Translations under genes and position numbers: made by a program
Notes under the pieces: generated by a model
The model's database searches: none
What the model was told of the DNA's origin: nothing
What the model saw: the letters and a program-made list of their open reading frames with translations, nothing else
From: a virus
Length of the DNA stretch: 64,000 bases
Strand: one strand, 5' to 3'
IMG/VR virus record: IMGVR_UViG_3300001533_002564
Span: 1 to 64,000 of that record
Shown here: positions 13,122 to 31,446 of the stretch, one piece after another
Layout of the letters: each line of letters opens with the position of its first letter
Position numbering within the stretch: the stretch's first letter is position 1

Positions 13122-13206
13122 TTCATTATACGGGACTCGAACCCGTGCGCAAGGATTAAGGATAGCATGTGCGTTTCCTTTGCTCTACCAACTGAGCTAC
13201 TAATGC
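13122..13206 (-). pseudogene. tRNA-like gene with expanded anticodon loop (possibly Lys-CTT-derived)
   Basis: Canonical D and T arms; AAGGA-(20 nt ending CCTTAA)-TCCTT. Confidence 0.5.
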
Positions 13207-13686: not shown

Positions 13687-14769
13687 TTACACATCATCAT
13701 AACCATTACTAAATGGTTTACTATATTTTGGTCTAATCATTTTCCAAATAATATCTGCATATGGTCTTTTATCATATAATTTAAATAAAATTGCACGATA
13801 ATTTGATTGTTTTGCTTGTTCAGCAAACTCAGTACGGTTACTTATGTCATTAATATGATAAATTCTTACAAATTCCAATAATGATTGTCTTTCAGTTTCA
13901 TTATATTGATTTTGTAGTTTATTTATTGTTCTTTTTAACCAATCATAAAATTCATCAGGAACTCTATCAAATAACCCATCAAAATCATAATTATTTTTCA
14001 AATGTTCCCAAACAATTACATTAGAAACATTTGTTAATATACCATGCAATCTAACATATTCATTAAACTTAACTTTAACTCTAAATCCATTAAAAAATCT
14101 AATTACAAAACCTTCTTTATTTTCTTCTTCAAGTGCTTTAAGTTCAGTTAAATTTTCAATATTCTTAATTTTATGTCTTTTTACAATGGTAAATAATTTT
14201 GAATATTGTGCAACCATATCGTCATAATATTGTTCAAAACCTGTTTCCGTATTAATTACTGATAATAAAATTAAGTCATACATATCACCATAATCAACAA
14301 CAATCCTGTTTTCAGGATAAATTATTTCAAATAAATAAGTATTATTTTCGTCAAATTTATCATAAGTATTTACATTAAGCATCTTTTTTGCTTCGATTGC
14401 TTGTTCTGAAATAAATGAACCTCTTGATGCAATAATCCAAACCATACGTGGTTTATAGTAGAATAATATAATTAAAGAACCATCCATTTTTTCAAAAATA
14501 TCATAATCTTGTGATAAATCAATTTCTGTTGAATCATGTTCTTCAATATTCTTGAATTTCTGGAATGGACGAGCTAATATATTACCATCAATATCAACAA
14601 CCATTCCACGACAAGACATAGTATATTCATCCCAAAACTTCTTTGATTGTGCTTTAGGACTATAATTAAGTATCCACATATCGTATTCTAGATGTTTATT
14701 TGCTATAATTAAATTATTATCAATATAATGATTTAATTTTTCCCAATTTAATTTTTTTAACATTTTCAT
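13687..14769 (-). CDS. T4 Rnl1-like RNA ligase
   Basis: CRGMV, PFQKFKN, EKMDGS (motif I), ASRGSF, EGFVI, VKVK. Confidence 0.88.
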   Translation of the reverse strand: MKMLKKLNWEKLNHYIDNNLIIANKHLEYDMWILNYSPKAQSKKFWDEYTMSCRGMVVDIDGNILARPFQKFKNIEEHDSTEIDLSQDYDIFEKMDGSLIILFYYKPRMVWIIASRGSFISEQAIEAKKMLNVNTYDKFDENNTYLFEIIYPENRIVVDYGDMYDLILLSVINTETGFEQYYDDMVAQYSKLFTIVKRHKIKNIENLTELKALEEENKEGFVIRFFNGFRVKVKFNEYVRLHGILTNVSNVIVWEHLKNNYDFDGLFDRVPDEFYDWLKRTINKLQNQYNETERQSLLEFVRIYHINDISNRTEFAEQAKQSNYRAILFKLYDKRPYADIIWKMIRPKYSKPFSNGYDDV

Positions 14770-17663: not shown

Positions 17664-18452
17664 TCAGCCATCTTTTGTAATAATTTTCTTTTCATATTCT
17701 ATTAATAAATAGTTATTTATTTGATATTTTGTACCAATATTATTTTTTAAATAATTAACAACATCTCTTTTACGTAGTTGAGTTTCGTTCATTTTACTTG
17801 TTTTAGTATATGATAATCCAAGATTATTACAACAAGTTTGAAATATCTTATGTATGTCTAATGATTTATTTGAAAATGAATATGAATCATATTCATAACC
17901 ATTAACTTTATTTATATAATAACAACCATCAGAATGAAATAATCCCATTAATAAATATTTATAAGAAATAATTTCAGTTTGCCATTTAGTTAATATAATT
18001 TTTCTTTGATATTTTCTACCAATTCCATGCTGAGGAAATAATTTTTCTAATTTATTTGAATGTACATATATTTCCAAATAAGTATTTCTATTAACAAAAC
18101 CAACAACATTACTTGGAAATAATTTTTCTAATTCCAATTTAATTAACATATTTAATTTTGAATATTTCGCATCATTAACAATTCGTAGTTTATGTGTTCT
18201 TTTCATCTTATTAATGTAACCATCACCTAAATACAATCCTAATATATATGAATAAGTTTCATTTAAATTATTATCTTCAATATATTTTTTAGGATTAAAA
18301 TTTGTTTTTTGAAATTTATTGAAATTTGGTTTATTTTTTATCCAATCATTAATGGTTGTTCTCGGAATATTTAATATTTTTGATATCTCACAATTATTTA
18401 ATCCAATATTTTTAAAATTAATTACTTTTTGATATTCTTTTTCTGTTCTCAT
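17664..18452 (-). CDS. Free-standing LAGLIDADG homing endonuclease with HTH
   Basis: YILGLYLGDG and LMGLFHSDG. Confidence 0.82.
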   Translation of the reverse strand: MRTEKEYQKVINFKNIGLNNCEISKILNIPRTTINDWIKNKPNFNKFQKTNFNPKKYIEDNNLNETYSYILGLYLGDGYINKMKRTHKLRIVNDAKYSKLNMLIKLELEKLFPSNVVGFVNRNTYLEIYVHSNKLEKLFPQHGIGRKYQRKIILTKWQTEIISYKYLLMGLFHSDGCYYINKVNGYEYDSYSFSNKSLDIHKIFQTCCNNLGLSYTKTSKMNETQLRKRDVVNYLKNNIGTKYQINNYLLIEYEKKIITKDG

Positions 18453-19516: not shown

Positions 19517-19972
19517 TTAATTTCTACATTTACTTCTAAATGTTTTTGTTTGTGAATGACAATTAGGACATAATATTCTTAAATTTTCTAACAAATGATT
19601 AGTTCTATCACCGTCAATATGGTCTAATTCCATGTTTAATAATTCTCCTTTCCATTTATTTTTTTGTCCACATTTTTCACATTCGTTTTTTTTATAACCT
19701 TCAGCAAATAATCTATTTTTTAATTTGAATGTTTGATATTCAGGATGTTTTCCTTCAAAAATAATTTCTTCTAAAGGTATTAAACGACCAGATTTTTTAT
19801 TGATTCCTTTACCTGATTGATTAGGTTCATAACAACCTAATTCAATTGCTCTTTTTTTAAAACTATTGAAATGTAGTTTTAATGTTGCTGCTGCTTTCGC
19901 CATTGTTAATGATTCTTCACATGTTTTAATAAAGAACTCATCATCAATTCTATCTTTTATTTTATTTCCCAT
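19517..19972 (-). CDS. HNH homing endonuclease
   Basis: CEKCG...ELDHIDGDRTN...LCPNCHSQT. Confidence 0.88.
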   Translation of the reverse strand: MGNKIKDRIDDEFFIKTCEESLTMAKAAATLKLHFNSFKKRAIELGCYEPNQSGKGINKKSGRLIPLEEIIFEGKHPEYQTFKLKNRLFAEGYKKNECEKCGQKNKWKGELLNMELDHIDGDRTNHLLENLRILCPNCHSQTKTFRSKCRN

Positions 19973-20027
19973 TTATTAGTATTTTAATATAAATACTAAA
20001 CACAATGGAAAAAGAATTTTTTAGTGT

Positions 20028-20348
20028 TTATTCTTCAGTGGTATCTAAAATTATTTTATTTTTAAATCCACCACGTTCTTTTTTCTTATTAATTTTAATT
20101 TTCTTTAATTCTTCAAGACTAATATTATGAAACATTCTTATTGCATCAATAACTTCCAATATATCAGCTAGTTTTTCGATACTAGGTTTAAGTATGAATT
20201 CTTCTAATTCTTCTTGTAATTTCAAATATAATTCACTTTCATATTCGTTATCATCGGCAATATGAAATTCATAATCAATACCTTTATTTTTTAAAATATC
20301 AGGAACATTATCCCTAACTAATTTATTATGTTTTTTATATTCTTTCAT
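20028..20348 (-). CDS. MazG/PRA-PH-like NTP pyrophosphohydrolase
   Basis: NKLVRDNVP...KLQEELEEF...LADILEVI...KKKERGGF. Confidence 0.8.
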   Translation of the reverse strand: MKEYKKHNKLVRDNVPDILKNKGIDYEFHIADDNEYESELYLKLQEELEEFILKPSIEKLADILEVIDAIRMFHNISLEELKKIKINKKKERGGFKNKIILDTTEE

Positions 20349-20773
20349 AACTCTAATAATAATCTCATATCATCTTTATTATATATTCTAATTAATGTTC
20401 CTTGACCATAAATAAATTGGAAATAATAACCTTTAAATTTCCAAATATCATTTGGGAAATCACATTTTAGTTTTTTTACATTAACTGGATGTGCAGCATC
20501 ATTCCTTGTCACATAGTTAATAATAAATATTAATTTATTATTTGGATATGGTTTACGTCCTTCATGATAACATTTCTCAATATATTCATCATTATATTCG
20601 TTAATTAAACGATACATCAATTTATCAAAATCATTTGTTTTTAACCATTCTTCAAAACGTTTATAACGTTGATTTATTATTTTTTGTTTTTTAGTTAAAT
20701 CTTCAAAATATTGTTGAACTGCTTCAGACTCAAAAAATTTATCAATTTTATCTTTTATATTATCTAATTTCAT
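20345..20773 (-). CDS. Hypothetical protein
   Basis: ORF track. Confidence 0.6.
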   Translation of the reverse strand: MKLDNIKDKIDKFFESEAVQQYFEDLTKKQKIINQRYKRFEEWLKTNDFDKLMYRLINEYNDEYIEKCYHEGRKPYPNNKLIFIINYVTRNDAAHPVNVKKLKCDFPNDIWKFKGYYFQFIYGQGTLIRIYNKDDMRLLLEL

Positions 20774-20788
20774 ATTTAATAATTTAAA

Positions 20789-20919
20789 AAAGGGACTTTC
20801 TTAAAGTAATCATTATCGGTCACGCTCCGAAACGGTCTAAGATAATTCTTTCATAACTTTCCCCATGAAATCCAGTTATGTATGTTTGCAAACTTTCTTT
20901 AAGTTTTATTCGTCCCTTT
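20789..20919 (-). ncRNA. Putative structured ncRNA directly 3' of tmRNA
   Basis: AAAGGGAC/GTCCCTTT closing stem; CTTAAAG/CTTTAAG, CATAACT/AGTTATG and ATTATC/GATAAT inner stems. Confidence 0.4.
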
Positions 20920-20921
20920 AG

Positions 20922-21285
20922 TGGAGTTGACGGGATTTGAACCCGTGTCCGCATGGTTGATTAATTAATTTTCTACAAGTTTAGGATAAAATTTTCTAAT
21001 TTTCCAAAAATAGTATGATTTAATTCTTAGTTTTTATTCTGGATTCATTACTTTTCTCATACAAACTCATTTCACCAGAAAGTTTTTGTTGATTTTTTTA
21101 CGACTTCCTATGCTGCAAATGCAAGTTCAACATTCTTTGCAAATACACTTTCTCCTCTCGTAAGAGAAGTCGGAATAGACATTATGTCTTCTGCGTTTAT
21201 TGTTTTGTACTTTTTTTAAGTAAATATTACAACTACTACTTGCTTATTAATCTCTCTACACCATCGTCAAAACCAAGACAACCCC
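20922..21285 (-). ncRNA. ssrA: tmRNA
   Basis: GGGGTTG/CAACTCC-A acceptor with G3.U70, GGTTTTGAC, T arm, tag ORF 21194-21108 AEDIMSIPTSLTRGESVFAKNVELAFAA*. Confidence 0.92.
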
Positions 21286-21288
21286 ATA

Positions 21289-21549
21289 TTATAATAAAAC
21301 ATTCCATTTTTCTTTAAATAATTCTTCGTAATCAATTCCATCACAAACATTTAATCCCATAACATTACCACCAGTCATAATACCAAGTAAAATATATTTT
21401 GGGTTTTCTATTCCTTCAAATAATATTGGTTCAAATGCTCTTATAGCAACTTCTTCACCTTGTAAACATTTTAACAATACATTACCATCTTCTCTATATT
21501 TAAGAAATATTGCTGGAATAATAATTATTTCATTTATTTTTTCACTCAT
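21289..21549 (-). CDS. Hypothetical protein
   Basis: ORF track. Confidence 0.55.
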   Translation of the reverse strand: MSEKINEIIIIPAIFLKYREDGNVLLKCLQGEEVAIRAFEPILFEGIENPKYILLGIMTGGNVMGLNVCDGIDYEELFKEKWNVLL

Positions 21550-21571
21550 ATTTAATTGTTAAACCATATAG

Positions 21572-22288
21572 TTATTTTTTTGTTGGTTTTTTTCTAAAAC
21601 TCCATTTATCAAAACCATGTTGTGGAATTTTATATTTATCATCGACTTCAATTATTTCTTTTTCACCAGCACCTAATACACCACTAATATACATTTGAAT
21701 TTCTTGAAAAGCAGTAAAACTATCAACTACTTTATAGAATTTATAATCTTTTAAATTAGGATTAATAATTAATGTACCTGTATTAGATGGTCTACCAGAA
21801 ATATGTTCATCATAAATAAATATTGGACTATTTAATTCTCTAAAAATATTAATTGGATTATAATTCAACACATAATCAACATCTTCTTGTATTGTATTTT
21901 TCCACCAATTACTTTTAAGATATTTTTTAGCATTATCATAACCATAAATAATATCTGTCTTAGTTACATCAACAATATTATCATAAATATCAACTTCTTT
22001 TGCATCATATTTAAATTTCCAACCTAAATAAAGTTTTCCACAAAAACCTACAATAAAAAAATCAACTTTTTTATATTTCTTTGAATCAGTACCCATTTGA
22101 CCTATATTCAAAAAATGATTAGTGCGTCTATAATTCCAACTTAAATTATTATCTAATTGAAATTCATTAGGCATATTTTTTACATCATCAATTTCAATAG
22201 TGTTTCTTTCATATACAATAGTTTTGTCAATACCCATTGTACCAACAACTCCATCGTAATAATCCTTATGTTTCGATATTATATGCAT
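21572..22288 (-). CDS. Hypothetical phage protein
   Basis: ORF preceded by TGTAAC-N16-CGTA (22324-22349). Confidence 0.7.
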   Translation of the reverse strand: MHIISKHKDYYDGVVGTMGIDKTIVYERNTIEIDDVKNMPNEFQLDNNLSWNYRRTNHFLNIGQMGTDSKKYKKVDFFIVGFCGKLYLGWKFKYDAKEVDIYDNIVDVTKTDIIYGYDNAKKYLKSNWWKNTIQEDVDYVLNYNPINIFRELNSPIFIYDEHISGRPSNTGTLIINPNLKDYKFYKVVDSFTAFQEIQMYISGVLGAGEKEIIEVDDKYKIPQHGFDKWSFRKKPTKK

Positions 22289-22391
22289 AATATAAAAATA
22301 TTGATTGCTAAATTAAATAAATATACGAAGAAATGCAAGGATTGTTACAAAAAAGAATTATAATAGTAAAAACTAAATTATAAAATTTTAG

Positions 22392-22463
22392 CACACCGAG
22401 GGCGATTCGAACACCCGACATTTGGTTTTGGAGACCAACGTTCTACCACTGAACTACCGATGT
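22392..22463 (-). tRNA. tRNA-Trp(CCA)
   Basis: TTGGT-CTCCAAA-ACCAA. Confidence 0.9.
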
Positions 22464-23218
22464 ATTTTAATTATATTTTCAATAATATTTAGATATTTTA
22501 ATGATGACTTTTCTTTAAAATATTTCTGTTGTGATGTATCAATAATACATAGTTCAATTCCTTGTTCTAAACATACTTGAAATTTACGATTATCGTTGTT
22601 TTGTATTTGCGAAAGTTTATCTTGACCATGTATTGGTTCATAATGATATATCCCGTTTAATTCAAATCCAAGTTTTAAACTTGGAATATAAATATCAAAC
22701 TCAGAATTTATTGCATCTTTACGATTAAAATGAAAATCTATATTAGGATATAATTTTGTTAATTTAAATTCTAACCATACTTCTAATTTAGATTTTCTTG
22801 TACCATACTTTTTATGTATATTATTATATGTTGCAGCACAAGATTTAGAACAAAAATGATTACCTGATTTAGACTTATTTATTTGAGATATTGTTTTACT
22901 GAATTCATTACCACAATTAGTGCAATTAACTATTTTCGATTTATTTTTTGATAATTGAATACATTTTTTTGAACAAAAATCACCAATATTTCTATCATAA
23001 TTATTAAATGTTCTTTTTATTACTCTTTTTAATTTATAGAAAGTATCACCACATTCTTTACATTTACATGGTAATTTATCATTTTCTCTGGCTAAAGAAA
23101 ATTCTAATTCTGTATATAATGGAATTATATCAATAAATACTCGAAAATAAAATTTCGAATCATAACACATGTGCAACATTCTCCAGACACTGACTGGAAA
23201 ATTAAAATATATTAACAC
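22454..23218 (-). CDS. Zinc-finger plus PD-(D/E)xK (Vsr-like) putative homing endonuclease; start uncertain
   Basis: Repeated CxxC...FCSKxC motifs, EFDIYIP...FELNGIYHY. Confidence 0.7.
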   Translation of the reverse strand: MLIYFNFPVSVWRMLHMCYDSKFYFRVFIDIIPLYTELEFSLARENDKLPCKCKECGDTFYKLKRVIKRTFNNYDRNIGDFCSKKCIQLSKNKSKIVNCTNCGNEFSKTISQINKSKSGNHFCSKSCAATYNNIHKKYGTRKSKLEVWLEFKLTKLYPNIDFHFNRKDAINSEFDIYIPSLKLGFELNGIYHYEPIHGQDKLSQIQNNDNRKFQVCLEQGIELCIIDTSQQKYFKEKSSLKYLNIIENIIKIHR

Positions 23219-23672
23219 CTAATGTGATTGTTATTGCAATAAAAACAGCTAATTCTGCCCACCACATAAAATGTTTTTTATCTACTAGATAAAGTATTGG
23301 TAGTGATGCTGCAACACCTGCTGTCATATACCACATATCGTATTGAAATATCATTGCTAATCCACCTAATATCATACCACCAATTGCTGCTACTAAATGA
23401 ATTGTTTTTGTAGGATTTTTATGCATAGCAGCATTTGCTCCAACCCAAACAATACCACCACCAGCAAAAAACATTAAAATACTATTCCCAATAAATATTA
23501 CTGGAAATGCAAATAACCAAGTAAATAATACAAATAAAAAGTTTCGTTTCTTTGGTAATACGTAATAACTTTTAGAAATACTTTTTTGAATACCGTATTT
23601 TATCCAGATATAAGATACATATGATATGAAATCTAATATCATTAATGTAAATAAAATTTTTATTAATGTCAT
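23202..23672 (-). CDS. Multi-pass membrane protein
   Basis: Several hydrophobic segments; start at MTLIKILF after GTATTTAT motif (the longer ORF call overlaps tRNA-Ala). Confidence 0.7.
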   Translation of the reverse strand: MTLIKILFTLMILDFISYVSYIWIKYGIQKSISKSYYVLPKKRNFLFVLFTWLFAFPVIFIGNSILMFFAGGGIVWVGANAAMHKNPTKTIHLVAAIGGMILGGLAMIFQYDMWYMTAGVAASLPILYLVDKKHFMWWAELAVFIAITITLGVNIF

Positions 23673-23741
23673 AATTTTTTTAATATAAATACAATATTGT
23701 TTTAAATGTGGAGTGTTTGGGTTTTGAACCCGATGTTGTTG

Positions 23742-23815
23742 TGGAGTCGAGGGAGTACGATTCCCCATTTATGCGGTGCAAGCGCATCGTGTTAGCCAGT
23801 TATCACTACGACCCC
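23742..23815 (-). tRNA. tRNA-Ala(TGC)
   Basis: GGGGTCG/CGACTCC-A (G3.U70), CTTGCAC loop. Confidence 0.88.
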
Positions 23816-23846
23816 AAATTTAAATATTAATATCAAACAATTTTTG

Positions 23847-23928
23847 TCCCTTTAGAGAGAATCGAACTCTCACACCTTTCGGCACATGTTTCTAAGACAT
23901 GCGTGTCTACCAATTCCACCATAAAGGG
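23847..23928 (-). tRNA. tRNA-Leu(TAG)
   Basis: CATGT-CTTAGAA-ACATG, variable arm. Confidence 0.92.
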
Positions 23929-24038
23929 GTTATTTATCGGTTGTAGATACGATAAAGATGATTTATCAATATATTTACGCATAAATAAATTTATTTGTTA
24001 TTTTACCTACATTGACAACTCTTCATCATATACAACTT

Positions 24039-24115
24039 TGGTACTCCCTGCTGGAATCAAACCAGCGACTTTCTGCATGTAAGGCAGACACTCTATCAAT
24101 CTGAATTAAAGGAGC
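24039..24115 (-). tRNA. tRNA-Val(TAC)
   Basis: TCTGC-CTTACAT-GCAGA, encoded CCA. Confidence 0.85.
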
Positions 24116-24206
24116 ATGAAGTGCTACGCCACCTTGCACCATCCCGTTTAAGAATCACCAGAAACGAGCAGGAATCGAACCAGTTAAGAACTATTGCAAT
24201 AAGTTG

Positions 24207-24293
24207 TACCCACAGATGGATTCGAACCACCGTTATACTACTCGCCTCTTCCTTGTAAGGGAAGTGCTCTTAACCTGACTGAGCTATGTGGGC
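24207..24293 (-). tRNA. tRNA-Val(TAC) with enlarged variable region
   Basis: CTTCC-CTTACAA-GGAAG. Confidence 0.8.
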
Positions 24294-24447
24294 ATTTAAT
24301 TATTTTTGATTTACCACCTTTTCTCACCTTTCTTATTTCATTAACAATAATTTCTAGGTCATAATTTTTCTTTTTAAAAAAAGAAGGTGGTGTATCAATA
24401 AATTCACGTATAATATTTATAATATTCATTATTTTCTATTTTTAAAT

Positions 24448-24561
24448 TTATATAAAGACATCATTATTGTTTTTGGATGGCGAAAGATAATTCCAACCAG
24501 TTTGTTTAATTAATTCAAAACCTAAAAGTCCATCACCTAATATTAATATTTTTTCTTTCAT
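24448..24561 (-). pseudogene. N-terminal remnant of a Rossmann-fold (RmlD-like) enzyme
   Basis: MKEKILILGDGLLGFELIKQTGWNYLS, then stop after 37 aa. Confidence 0.45.
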
Positions 24562-24591
24562 AATGTCTTTTTTTGACAAATATACTGAAAA

Positions 24592-25242
24592 TTATTTCAT
24601 ATTTCTACCTTTAATCCAGCCAAAATTAACATAATCATTTAATAAATCTTTTTTTATTTTTTTATTCACACCGTTTTTATTTACCCAACATCTACCATAC
24701 TGAGAATTATTTTCACCAAGACCCTTTCCTTTGCTAGATTCACTCATTTTTTGTTTAGTCTCAATTGAATGTCGTTTATTTTTAAAATTATTATATTTAA
24801 TTTTACCCTCTTGATGTCTTTTTTTCATTTTTATTGAAGATTGTGCTGAATGAATTTTAAAATATTCAGGGTCATTTTTTAATTTTTTTGCTGTTGCTTT
24901 TCCACCAGCACTAGTAATTTTAAATATTTTTTCTTTAGATAACCCAACTAAACCACCATCACCACCTGTTTTTAAATTCATACACATTGGGTCTTTTAAC
25001 ATTTCTTCATTTACCAAATTTTTTTCACGTTCTTTTAGTAAATTTCTATTTTCATAAAAATCAATTATTTCAATTTTATGATTTTCTTTACCATATTTAT
25101 TAATTGAATACCAAAGTCTTTTACCACTACCAATATAACCGTCATTTAAATTATTAGTACTATGCATTCCATAATAAAATTTTTCTGTAATAATACAAGT
25201 TGTTTTATAAATAAAATGATATTTTTTTTCTTTTCGTACCAT
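24592..25242 (-). CDS. GIY-YIG (Seg-like) homing endonuclease
   Basis: HFIYKTT...FYYGMHST...GYIGSG, NUMOD3-like HSIETKQKMS. Confidence 0.85.
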   Translation of the reverse strand: MVRKEKKYHFIYKTTCIITEKFYYGMHSTNNLNDGYIGSGKRLWYSINKYGKENHKIEIIDFYENRNLLKEREKNLVNEEMLKDPMCMNLKTGGDGGLVGLSKEKIFKITSAGGKATAKKLKNDPEYFKIHSAQSSIKMKKRHQEGKIKYNNFKNKRHSIETKQKMSESSKGKGLGENNSQYGRCWVNKNGVNKKIKKDLLNDYVNFGWIKGRNMK

Positions 25243-25288
25243 CTTAATATTTTATTATAAATACTAAGACGGTACAAAAAGTTCAAGG

Positions 25289-25361
25289 TAGCGTACAGGG
25301 GAATCGAACCCCTGTTTCTAGGATGAAAACCTAGCGTCCTAGTCCACTAGACGAGTGCGCC
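25289..25361 (-). tRNA. tRNA-Glu(TTC)
   Basis: CTAGG-TTTTCAT-CCTAG. Confidence 0.92.
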
Positions 25362-25371
25362 ATATGAATAA

Positions 25372-25584
25372 TTAAAATTCACCTTTAATTATTCTTACGA
25401 TATCTTTACTACTGACCACGTTACATTTTGTAGTAATTTCATCAATTCTTTTTTTAGGAATATCATAATGATTTTTATAAAACCAGTATTTCCTAATTTT
25501 CAATTTTTTTGCCATAAGATGCAAATTCTCAATGGAATATGGCATACAAACGACATGTCTACTTTTGTCACAGTAAAATTCCAT
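25372..25584 (-). CDS. DUF4031-like protein
   Basis: LHLMAKKLKIRKYWF...HYDI. Confidence 0.55.
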   Translation of the reverse strand: MEFYCDKSRHVVCMPYSIENLHLMAKKLKIRKYWFYKNHYDIPKKRIDEITTKCNVVSSKDIVRIIKGEF

Positions 25585-25610
25585 CTCAAATAGTTTTTAA
25601 TTAATATTAG

Positions 25611-25685
25611 TAGTGCCAACGGGACTCGAACCCGCATTTGCCAGTTTGAAGGACTGATTTCCTATTCCATTTAGAAGATAGCACC
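25611..25685 (-). tRNA. tRNA-Glu(TTC), C33 variant
   Basis: TCAGT-CCTTCAA-ACTGG. Confidence 0.82.
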
Positions 25686-25723
25686 ATTTTGAATTTTCCA
25701 GACAGTGTATGGAAAATTGAAAA

Positions 25724-25860
25724 TACTTTACATACTTTTTGGCAAGTGATGATTTTTTCATGTCACAGGCTTCTGCTTATTTAAGGCAGATATGCTTATT
25801 GCACCAACTTGCAGTATTCTCATAAATTATATCCACCTGATATAATCCGACAGTAAAGTA
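25724..25860 (-). ncRNA. Putative multi-branched structured ncRNA
   Basis: TACTTTAC/GTAAAGTA closing stem; ATTATATC/GATATAAT, GCAAGT/ACTTGC and TCTGC/GCAGA inner stems. Confidence 0.4.
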
Positions 25861-25865
25861 CTTAG

Positions 25866-25938
25866 CACCCCCGACAGGACTTGAACCTGCAACCTTGGCG
25901 CAGACAACGCCTTATTCTGCCAATTGAACTACGAGGGT
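25866..25938 (-). tRNA. tRNA-Asp(GTC)
   Basis: GGCG-TTGTCTG-CGCC, G73. Confidence 0.8.
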
Positions 25939-25940
25939 AT

Positions 25941-26609
25941 TTATTGTTTTTCATAATATTTTTTCCACTTCCTAATCGCATTATCACTAACACCATATTT
26001 ACGACCAGTACCAGAATAACCTAATTCATTAATCTCAATTAATAATTGTTCATATGAAGGTCGTTTAACTTTACGTTGTTTAACTGAACGTTTTTTTAAT
26101 GAGATTTCTTTTTCTTTATTATTTAATTCATTATAATATTTTTTTCTCTTAGAATTAGATTTAAACTTAATATTTTTACCTCCATGAGTAGGAAGTGTTG
26201 CATTACAATTTGGACATAATATTCTAAGATTAATTAATCTATTATCATCATGATTTCCATTGATATGGTCAAGAATTAGACTTATTTTTTCACCATACCA
26301 CCATTCATCTTGTCCACATTTTTCACATTTACGTTCTTTTAATCCCTCATCATATAATCTTTTTTTCAGATTTTTAGTGTTATATGTTGAGCCAGTAACC
26401 AAAATTTCATTTAATAATAATTTACCATTATAATTGTTTTTTGGTTTAAAATCAAAATGTGATATATCTATATCATATTCATTAATTCTTTTTTTTATTG
26501 TTTGTCTATTACCACAATAATTATTATCATATATTTTTTTTGATACATCACTAAATGATTTCGATTCACTTACAATTTGTTTAAATTTTTTTATGTCCAT
26601 AACTGTCAT
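25941..26609 (-). CDS. HNH homing endonuclease
   Basis: Paralog of 11846-12535. Confidence 0.88.
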   Translation of the reverse strand: MTVMDIKKFKQIVSESKSFSDVSKKIYDNNYCGNRQTIKKRINEYDIDISHFDFKPKNNYNGKLLLNEILVTGSTYNTKNLKKRLYDEGLKERKCEKCGQDEWWYGEKISLILDHINGNHDDNRLINLRILCPNCNATLPTHGGKNIKFKSNSKRKKYYNELNNKEKEISLKKRSVKQRKVKRPSYEQLLIEINELGYSGTGRKYGVSDNAIRKWKKYYEKQ

Positions 26610-26670
26610 TTAATATAAATACTGTCAGTTCGACAAATATAATAATAAATGACAATTAAAACAACTCAGC

Positions 26671-26740
26671 CGACCACGTGGGATTCGAACCCCGCCCCCT
26701 CATAGACAGTGAGGAATACTTGCCATTATACTACGCAGTC
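26671..26740 (-). tRNA. tRNA-Asp(GTC)
   Basis: CCTCA-CTGTCTA-TGAGG, G73. Confidence 0.85.
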
Positions 26741-26816
26741 GATATTTGGAATGGATTATATGATTTTTTCAATACTATATAATCCATTCCTATGAATTTA
26801 ATAATTTTTACTTTTT

Positions 26817-26837
26817 CCAACATGTCAAAGAACTATA
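26817..26837 (-). promoter_or_regulatory. boxA-like antitermination element
   Basis: Identical to 1449-1469. Confidence 0.65.
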
Positions 26838-26849
26838 CACACTAAAATC

Positions 26850-26882
26850 AAAAAACCCGACTCTTTTTAGTTAGTCGGGCTT
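26850..26882 (-). terminator. Attenuator terminator 3
   Basis: AAGCCCGACT / AGTCGGGTTT plus U-tract. Confidence 0.85.
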
Positions 26883-26913
26883 CTTTTTAAGAAAGGAGTG
26901 TGTAATATTATTA

Positions 26914-27000
26914 TTACCCGACTGAACATAATCTATCCTCATCTGCTGCCCATAAGACTGCATCCAGAACTACCATTAATATGTCGAGTAAATTTTTCAT
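26914..27000 (-). CDS. Leader peptide 3, MKNLLDILMVVLDAVLWAADEDRLCSVG (28 aa)
   Basis: L/D/M/V/A/W/E run; AGTCGGGT (26916-26923) complementary to the terminator 5' arm. Confidence 0.8.
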   Translation of the reverse strand: MKNLLDILMVVLDAVLWAADEDRLCSVG

Positions 27001-27078
27001 TTGTCTTGTTATTTTTTTATTAATACTATTTTTTCATCAATTTGTTTTTAAATAAACTTATTGTCTTGAGTTCATAAA

Positions 27079-27105
27079 TACGTAGCAAAGATATAAAATG
27101 TTACA
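27079..27105 (-). promoter_or_regulatory. Composite promoter: TGTAAC-N17-CGTA with nested TATCTTTG
   Basis: Near-identical to 1711-1737. Confidence 0.65.
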
Positions 27106-27198
27106 ATAATACCAAACTTTTTTTGATTTATTTTTTAATTATTTTCTATCGACAGCCAAAAGTACTTGATAATAAGGAGATTTGGCTAATAATAGATA

Positions 27199-27561
27199 TT
27201 AATATTCATCAGATAATGAGAAAAATCTTTGAAGTTCTAACATCTTTTGTTTATCTTCATTATAAACCTTATTATAAATTGTATCTAATATTATTTTTAA
27301 ATCTTCTCTAGTAAATGTTTCGTTATTTACTAAAGAAGCAAGATTATTCCATTCATTATAATTACCATTTTCATCTAAATCATCATCACGATATTCATCA
27401 GGATCTGGTTCATTATTTTCATCATCTTCATATGGTTCATTATATGGTGCAGTTGGGTCATATTCTGCTCCAGCAGGATAATTTTCATTTAAAGGCATAC
27501 CACCTACTTTATTCATCATTTCAAAAAGCATATCTTTGCTACTATCTTTTTGTTTTTTCAT
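27199..27561 (-). CDS. Acidic late protein
   Basis: AGTATTTAT upstream; SKDMLFEMM resembles SKERLFEVM of 35971. Confidence 0.7.
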   Translation of the reverse strand: MKKQKDSSKDMLFEMMNKVGGMPLNENYPAGAEYDPTAPYNEPYEDDENNEPDPDEYRDDDLDENGNYNEWNNLASLVNNETFTREDLKIILDTIYNKVYNEDKQKMLELQRFFSLSDEY

Positions 27562-27757
27562 AATATTCTAAATTTATAATAAATACTTTATAACTATAAA
27601 AAAGGTGATAATAGTAGCGAACTTCTTATCACCTTTATATGGTCGAAACCATAACAGTCCTAAAACCGTATATCGTTAAATTATCTTTTAACATAAATAC
27701 TTATTCAAAATATAATATTCTGGCACGTTTATTGTTTTTTAATTAAAAATTATTCAC

Positions 27758-28498
27758 ATGAAAAAATTATTACTTACATTATTATTATTTTTATTTACAA
27801 TTCCATTATTTTCACAAACAGCATACATTAATGATAACAACAGAGAACGTTTAATTAAACAATTTTTTTCTGTCGATACAATTCAGAAAGATACAACATA
27901 TACTATTCAATATACTTTATATGTAAATAGATTAGTTCATTATGTATATCCATTTGGTTATAGGTCATTCTATAATAGACATTATCCTTATTATAATAAT
28001 TATTGGTCATATGATTATACTTGGTGGTATAATAACGATTGGTATAATCCTTACTGGTTTTACTATGATAGTTGGTATTATAATAATTATAGATGTTATT
28101 ATAGATATTATTGGAACTATCACAAACCATATTATAAACCAATTAGACAAAGAACTGTTGTAACTAGAAATGCTAAATCTGTTAAGCATGATATTAAATC
28201 AACAAGAGTAAGCACTCAAAATCATACTAGACCTGCTACTAATAGAACAGAAAGATATAATAGACCAAGGAGTCATTATAATAGTGAATCAAGATATGTT
28301 CGACAAGCAAAAACTTATGAAAATACTAGACCAAATAATAATAGAAGAAGTTCATATACAAGAACAAATCCAAGAACACGTAGTTATAACACACCAACAA
28401 GGTCGAAGTCAACTACTGTAAGAAGTTCTAATTCAAGTGGAACAAGAAGTTCTGGTAGTAGAAGTTCTTCAGGAAGTAGAAGTGGTGGTAGAAGATAA
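27758..28498 (+). CDS. Secreted Y/W-rich protein with R/S-rich tail
   Basis: Signal peptide; low-complexity architecture common in Bacteroidota. Confidence 0.7.
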   Translation: MKKLLLTLLLFLFTIPLFSQTAYINDNNRERLIKQFFSVDTIQKDTTYTIQYTLYVNRLVHYVYPFGYRSFYNRHYPYYNNYWSYDYTWWYNNDWYNPYWFYYDSWYYNNYRCYYRYYWNYHKPYYKPIRQRTVVTRNAKSVKHDIKSTRVSTQNHTRPATNRTERYNRPRSHYNSESRYVRQAKTYENTRPNNNRRSSYTRTNPRTRSYNTPTRSKSTTVRSSNSSGTRSSGSRSSSGSRSGGRR

Positions 28499-31317: not shown

Positions 31318-31446
31318 TTACTTCTTGCCTTTTAAAGCAGCCAGTCTACCCTGCATTCTACGTGCCTTTTCTGGATTGTCTTTAAATTGCAGAAGCTGTC
31401 TTTCCAATCTCTTTCTTCTGTTTTCAACACTTTTTTCCTTTGCCAT
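31318..31446 (-). CDS. Small basic protein (42 aa) at the head of the Pro/His/Gln operon
   Basis: MAKEKSVENRRKRLERQLLQFKDNPEKARRMQGRLAALKGKK. Confidence 0.55.
   Translation of the reverse strand: MAKEKSVENRRKRLERQLLQFKDNPEKARRMQGRLAALKGKK

Follow-up and report, generated by a model that had tools for sequence, protein, structure and literature searches.

A 28-codon leader open reading frame (ORF) preceding one block of tRNA genes in a giant phage encodes almost exclusively the amino acids carried by those tRNAs, and is embedded in a predicted terminator/antiterminator RNA switch. We infer from sequence alone that the phage probably makes these tRNAs, and perhaps its transfer-messenger RNA (tmRNA), only when ribosomes read those codons slowly. 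Literature searches on phage or tRNA-operon attenuation found no description of leader-peptide attenuation of tRNA genes.

The window analyzed comprises the first 64,000 nucleotides of a 104,188-base IMG/VR viral contig with a G+C content of 26% and a CheckV completeness of 32%, and is therefore a fragment of a giant phage. ARAGORN identified 20 tRNAs and one tmRNA, and Rfam added five more tRNA-like hits, among them tRNA-His at 31191-31119, Ile(GAU) at 641-565 and Asn(GUU) at 139-82. All tRNA genes lie on the minus strand, as do all features described below. A megablast search of 20000-28000 against phage records found nothing, and a protein search with a 238-aa ORF resident in the tRNA block found only distant jumbo phages, the best hit of which (LR756500.1) has no tRNAs within 20 kb of the match. 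The region 25800-27600 was found only in DNA runs from aquatic and sediment metagenomes, with no RNA run listed for it.

A promoter-like motif (TTGTAACATTTT, 12 bases, CGTATTTA) at 27106-27075 precedes the leader ORF at 27000-26914, which is followed by two more in-frame TAA codons down to 26908. Eighteen of the 19 residues at codons 4-22 (26991-26935) are L, D, M, V, A, W or E, the exception being Ile7 (ATA). Between 26741 and 16618, a stretch we refer to as block B, ARAGORN and Rfam find exactly Asp x2, Glu x2, Val x2, Leu(tag), Ala, Trp, tmRNA, Leu(taa), Leu(caa) and a CAU-anticodon tRNA. Sequence comparison could not decide between Met and Ile2 for the last of these (16692-16618), which we take as Met by parsimony because relatives also carry a UAU-anticodon Ile tRNA in the fourth tRNA block (block D). 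On this basis the amino acid set of the leader is identical to that of its block. The proximal genes (Asp to Trp, 26741-22391) are interspersed with homing-endonuclease ORFs, the tmRNA lies at 21285-20921 (Rfam RF00023, 98.4 bits), and the distal Leu(taa), Leu(caa) and CAU-anticodon tRNAs lie at 19514-16618. Overall, 20 of 27 leader residues fall in the set against a background of 33.5% in the genome's own proteins, a 2.2-fold enrichment (binomial p = 2e-5), and no other of 463 short ORFs in the genome reaches that fraction.

The sequence AGTCGGGT occurs twice, at 26923-26916, where its last base is the first base of the stop codon, and at 26862-26855, where it forms the 3' arm of an intrinsic terminator. 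Both copies are complementary to GCCCGACT at 26880-26873, the terminator 5' arm. The terminator (26880-26850) consists of an 8-bp GC-rich stem with a 10-base loop and a run of six T at 26855-26850, and its hairpin is -11.7 kcal/mol. The duplex between the upstream arm and the terminator 5' arm beat all 200 shuffles. A conserved 21-base element at 26837-26817 follows the terminator and contains a boxA-like core, GTTCTTTGACA, at 26833-26823. The initial annotation of this locus, which had described the restricted leader codons, the matching tRNA set, the arm overlapping the stop codon and the boxA after the terminator, is thus confirmed in its observations.

Three further units of the same design lie in the window. 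A leader with QPQPQQHPQ precedes Pro, His, Pro, Gln and Gln tRNAs, a leader with KYYYCKKSYKKY precedes Lys, Lys and Tyr, and a 42-codon leader rich in T, I, S, N, R, G, F and C precedes Cys, Ile, Ser and Asn, after which the contig ends. In a 4x4 table of leaders against tRNA sets, only the matching cells are enriched. The four amino acids with no tRNA on the contig (Thr, Arg, Gly and Phe) are all frequent in the fourth leader, predicting that their genes lie beyond the contig end. The promoter-like motif lies upstream of three of the window's four leaders, and an exact-pattern scan of IMG/VR for it returned 52 loci, most of them followed by a leader ORF of one of the four types; its promoter function is inferred. 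We examined the tRNA regions of five complete relatives with genomes of 325-357 kb (about 330 kb), all of which carry the four blocks in the same order, each behind a leader and terminator. The fourth block of these genomes contains Thr, Arg, Gly and Phe tRNAs, so the prediction held.

Two additional scans raised the number of distinct homologues of the block B leader to 28. These vary in sequence and in length (27-37 codons), but the frame stays open across indels from a conserved ATGAAAA start, 91% of pooled sensor residues fall in the set, every leader has one Trp, and only Met is ever missing (in 4 of the 28). Conservation of composition rather than sequence is what a codon sensor predicts and what a functional peptide does not. 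The one regular outsider is Ile7, nearly always ATA, which is conserved although the block has no obvious Ile tRNA and for which we have no explanation. Sporadic extra tRNAs in some relatives, for example a Cys tRNA in block B of locus L040, are also not mirrored in the leader. The ORF has no Shine-Dalgarno motif, but neither do 79 of the 81 long ORFs of this genome, whose start regions are simply A-rich, so this absence is no argument against translation. It hints instead at a Bacteroidota-like host, in which attenuation of this type is little studied.

The pairings of the proposed switch were assessed in a 12-sequence alignment of homologues (A1). The terminator is 96.9% paired by cell with four compensatory pairs, and none of 500 shuffles was as high, whereas the antiterminator pairing of 26923-26916 with 26880-26873, which excludes the terminator, is 95.8% paired with two compensatory pairs. 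In an alignment-free test, each leader binds its own terminator arm better than the arms of other homologues (0 of 20000 permutations with 29 units). The same test gave p = 0.008 and 0.013 for the Pro/His/Gln and Thr...Arg types, but was not significant for the Lys/Tyr leaders (p = 0.43), whose terminator arm hardly varies. In one case (L044), three positions change together in all three arms. Codons 4-6 (TTACTCGAC, 26991-26983) can also pair with the antiterminator arm, and do so in the minimum-free-energy fold of the free RNA, which would serve the role of the trp 1:2 hairpin in the absence of translation. In A1, 88.6% of cells of this helix are paired, but it shows no covariation because the sequences are too conserved, being nearly invariant even at synonymous sites.

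Folds of the transcript up to the terminator loop, that is before the 3' arm exists, form the antiterminator when a ribosome is modeled at codon 8, 16 or 20, but not with the ribosome at the stop codon, where the pairing is blocked; the other three units behave alike. With the ribosome at codon 12, however, the minimum-free-energy fold does not show the antiterminator. This geometry assumes a ribosome footprint of about 13-15 bases 3' of the A site, and on the same assumption we infer that the sensor run ends, at codon 22, about where the leading edge of a stalled ribosome would begin to cover the arm. In 3 of the 12 aligned homologues the stop codon lies about 20 bases beyond the arm rather than on it, and in one complete relative (G005) the arm is weakened and the U-tract interrupted. 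The terminator loop is long and the hairpin only moderate, so that basal read-through could be high.

The 21-base element follows the block B terminator in all six genomes (this contig and the five complete relatives), and the same motif precedes tRNA-Cys in the fourth block. Its core matches the published boxA consensus GYTCTTTAANA at 10 of 11 positions (PMC5725501), and a relaxed pattern has seven hits in the window, all on the minus strand, against 1.2 expected. We considered the motif as a second promoter, with TTGACA as a -35 box, but rejected this because in compact relatives it ends about 10 bases before tRNA-Asp, the tRNA starting about 13 bases after it, and because the block D copy has no -10 element. 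A Nus-factor site protecting a long, largely untranslated transcript from Rho is a sensible reading, although NusB/NusE binding and Rho resistance are inferred from sequence similarity to the rrn and suhB boxA only. Unlike those sites, the putative boxA lies in a phage tRNA operon directly after an attenuator. No match to PF00562 (RNA polymerase beta) was found in the five complete relatives, which is weak evidence but fits transcription by host polymerase, intrinsic termination and boxA. A PF00940 search was uninformative, its controls also being silent.

We interpret the element as a ribosome-mediated (leader-peptide) transcription attenuator gating a phage operon of tRNA genes, a reading that is well supported by its anatomy, statistics, conservation, covariation and a fulfilled prediction. 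In this view, transcription starts at the promoter-like motif and the leader is translated. A ribosome running smoothly to the stop codon would cover AGTCGGGT, allowing the terminator hairpin to form and polymerase to stop at the U-tract. A ribosome stalled at any of codons 4-22, because a tRNA for Leu, Asp, Met, Val, Ala, Trp or Glu is scarce or uncharged, would leave that arm free to pair with the terminator 5' arm before the 3' arm is made, and polymerase would read on past the boxA-like motif into the tRNA genes. The new tRNAs would relieve the stall, giving negative feedback, and with no translation at all the pairing of codons 4-6 with the arm would allow the terminator to form. The sequence elements, their conservation and covariation, and the match between codons and tRNA set are demonstrated by the present analysis, whereas translation of the leader, coupling of ribosome and polymerase, the response of read-through to charged tRNA supply, the identity of the signal and the extent of read-through are inferred. 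A stall reports a shortage of decodable aminoacyl-tRNA. As the output is tRNA, extra transcription would help only if tRNA itself rather than the amino acid were limiting, and we infer that the signal is more likely tRNA supply, for example after host tRNA cleavage or shut-off.

The interpretation in the initial annotation, of a multi-amino-acid sensor controlling a block of about 10 kb including a tmRNA co-induced by ribosome stalling if the transcript is continuous, is partly supported. It is possible that in this genome the attenuator is real but controls only the proximal tRNAs (Asp to Ala or Trp), the tmRNA and distal Leu and Met tRNAs being driven mainly by internal promoters that arrived with homing-endonuclease genes, in which case tmRNA would not be co-induced by stalling. 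Block B is stretched to 10 kb by HNH (25941-26609, 22454-23218 and 19517-19972), GIY-YIG/NUMOD-like (24592-25242) and LAGLIDADG (17664-18452) endonuclease genes, which separate the duplicated Asp, Glu and Val tRNAs. Four promoter-like motifs resembling GTATTTAT(A/G)TTAAA lie inside it beside such genes, at about 26622, 25264, 23692 and 19996, and several of the endonuclease genes are preceded by the GTATTTAT motif, which precedes 21 of 81 long ORFs genome-wide and hints at a phage-specific promoter class. A terminator-like hairpin at 17195-17165 also precedes the last tRNA. On the other hand, relatives G005 and G002 carry the same gene order, including tmRNA, in about 7 kb with no intrinsic terminator in between and with no such motif (G005) or one far downstream (G002). 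The leader also uses TTA and ATG codons, read by tRNAs that lie beyond the tmRNA, and internal promoters would add to read-through rather than exclude it. The tmRNA lies in this block in 4 of 6 genomes, holding the same position in relatives G001, G002 and G005. A single gated operon that includes tmRNA is thus plausible as the ancestral arrangement, and co-regulation of the full 10 kb and of the tmRNA in this contig is plausible but unproven.

A translation-independent switch, in which the leader RNA binds a tRNA or another ligand directly or a phage protein controls the terminator, is unlikely. Sensing tRNA and gating a terminator is the logic of T-box leaders, and nucleotides in codons 4-8 are conserved at synonymous sites. 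However, no T-box hit was obtained at the gathering threshold in the window or at E up to 10 in 26700-27200, no Rfam family reached even E = 0.1 here, the element is only about 150 bases long, and the frame is kept open across indels in 28 homologues with composition rather than sequence conserved. It is still less likely that the ORF encodes a functional small hydrophobic and acidic peptide, or is untranslated, with the hairpin an ordinary terminator or insulator of the upstream gene and the tRNA match a coincidence: the peptide could form an amphipathic helix, its N-terminal residues are well conserved and a Shine-Dalgarno motif is lacking, but all four leader types match their own block and not the others, composition is conserved while sequence and length vary, the upstream arm covaries with the terminator, a promoter-like motif separates the upstream gene from the leader, and the lack of Shine-Dalgarno motifs is the genome's norm.

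The proposed mechanism is that of the classical attenuators and is closest to the multivalent attenuators of enterobacterial amino acid operons, such as the ilvGMEDA leader for Leu/Val/Ile and the thr leader for Thr/Ile, and also resembles trp, his, leu and pheA. It shares with these a short leader rich in regulatory codons, mutually exclusive antiterminator and terminator hairpins, masking of the antiterminator arm by a ribosome at the stop codon, a possible 1:2 pairing without translation, and sensing of more than one amino acid by one leader. It differs in that the downstream genes are tRNAs, a tmRNA, homing endonucleases and small ORFs of unknown function rather than biosynthetic enzymes or synthetases, so that the product would act directly on the sensor. 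In addition, seven amino acids are sampled in one leader and four leaders together cover all 20, the element is in a phage and is followed by a boxA-like motif, it lacks a Shine-Dalgarno motif, and it has no sequence similarity to any Rfam leader family. The pheM leader of Escherichia coli pheST likewise applies attenuation to a component of the translation apparatus, but gates an aminoacyl-tRNA synthetase and senses a single amino acid. T-box riboswitches also read the state of a specific tRNA and gate an intrinsic terminator through an antiterminator, but bind the tRNA directly without a ribosome and have a specifier loop and conserved T-box sequence, none of which was found here. The nearest published functional analogue that we found is the trn L-array operon of Anabaena sp. 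PCC 7120, a supernumerary tRNA array silent until translation is impaired and with an RNA ligase in the same regulon or neighborhood (PMC8421152; PMC10272220), a feature shared with the present window, where a T4 Rnl1-type ligase lies at 13687-14769. Its published control is a protein repressor, TrcR, binding direct repeats over the promoter, not attenuation, and the words attenuat-, leader and terminator do not occur in PMC8421152.

Phage tRNA genes are usually discussed as constitutive codon-usage helpers or as replacements for tRNAs destroyed by host defenses, and how their expression is controlled is largely unknown. An attenuator whose output is the very tRNAs that read its leader would be a direct feedback loop on decoding speed, extending a classic mechanism to a new class of genes and to viruses in a compact, testable sensor of about 150 bases, with clear predictions for start-codon, sensor-codon and arm mutants and for tRNA depletion by anticodon nucleases. 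The partition of the 20 amino acids into four sensed groups may also reveal which tRNAs the phage treats as jointly limiting. More tentatively, a clade of giant phages may run a demand-driven supply of translation components, each of four leaders opening its own tRNA operon only when decoding of its codons slows, with the block B unit also switching on tmRNA so that stalled ribosomes induce both the missing tRNAs and their own rescue. Such a circuit would let the phage replace tRNAs lost to host anticodon nucleases or host shut-off without making them constitutively.

Four conserved ORFs of unknown function (238, 86, 142 and 106 aa) flank the tmRNA at 20028-22288, and at the same positions in G001, G002 and G005; they have no Pfam match, although one matches phrog_4243. 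A perfect 14-bp inverted repeat at 26748-26790, directly upstream of the first tRNA-Asp, is absent at this position in the five relatives, where the tRNA follows the boxA-like motif within about 10 bases, and could be a processing site or a small insertion. A 42-codon, very basic ORF with no family match (31318-31446) sits between the Pro/His/Gln terminator and the first tRNA-Pro. Each complete relative ends the fourth block with a CUA-anticodon (amber suppressor) tRNA (L060, L062, L063 and L067, in G001, G002, G003 and G005), but ORFs of the present contig show no gain in length when TAG is read through. The first gene after the Lys/Tyr terminator is a tRNA-like gene (13122-13206, Rfam 39.3 bits) with a 20-base anticodon loop, which carries a short insertion or is degenerate. 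Directly upstream of the Lys/Tyr leader, at 13687-14769, lies a T4 Rnl1-type RNA ligase (PF09511, E = 1.5e-20; phrog_562), suggesting a link between tRNA repair and the tRNAs best known as targets of anticodon nucleases.
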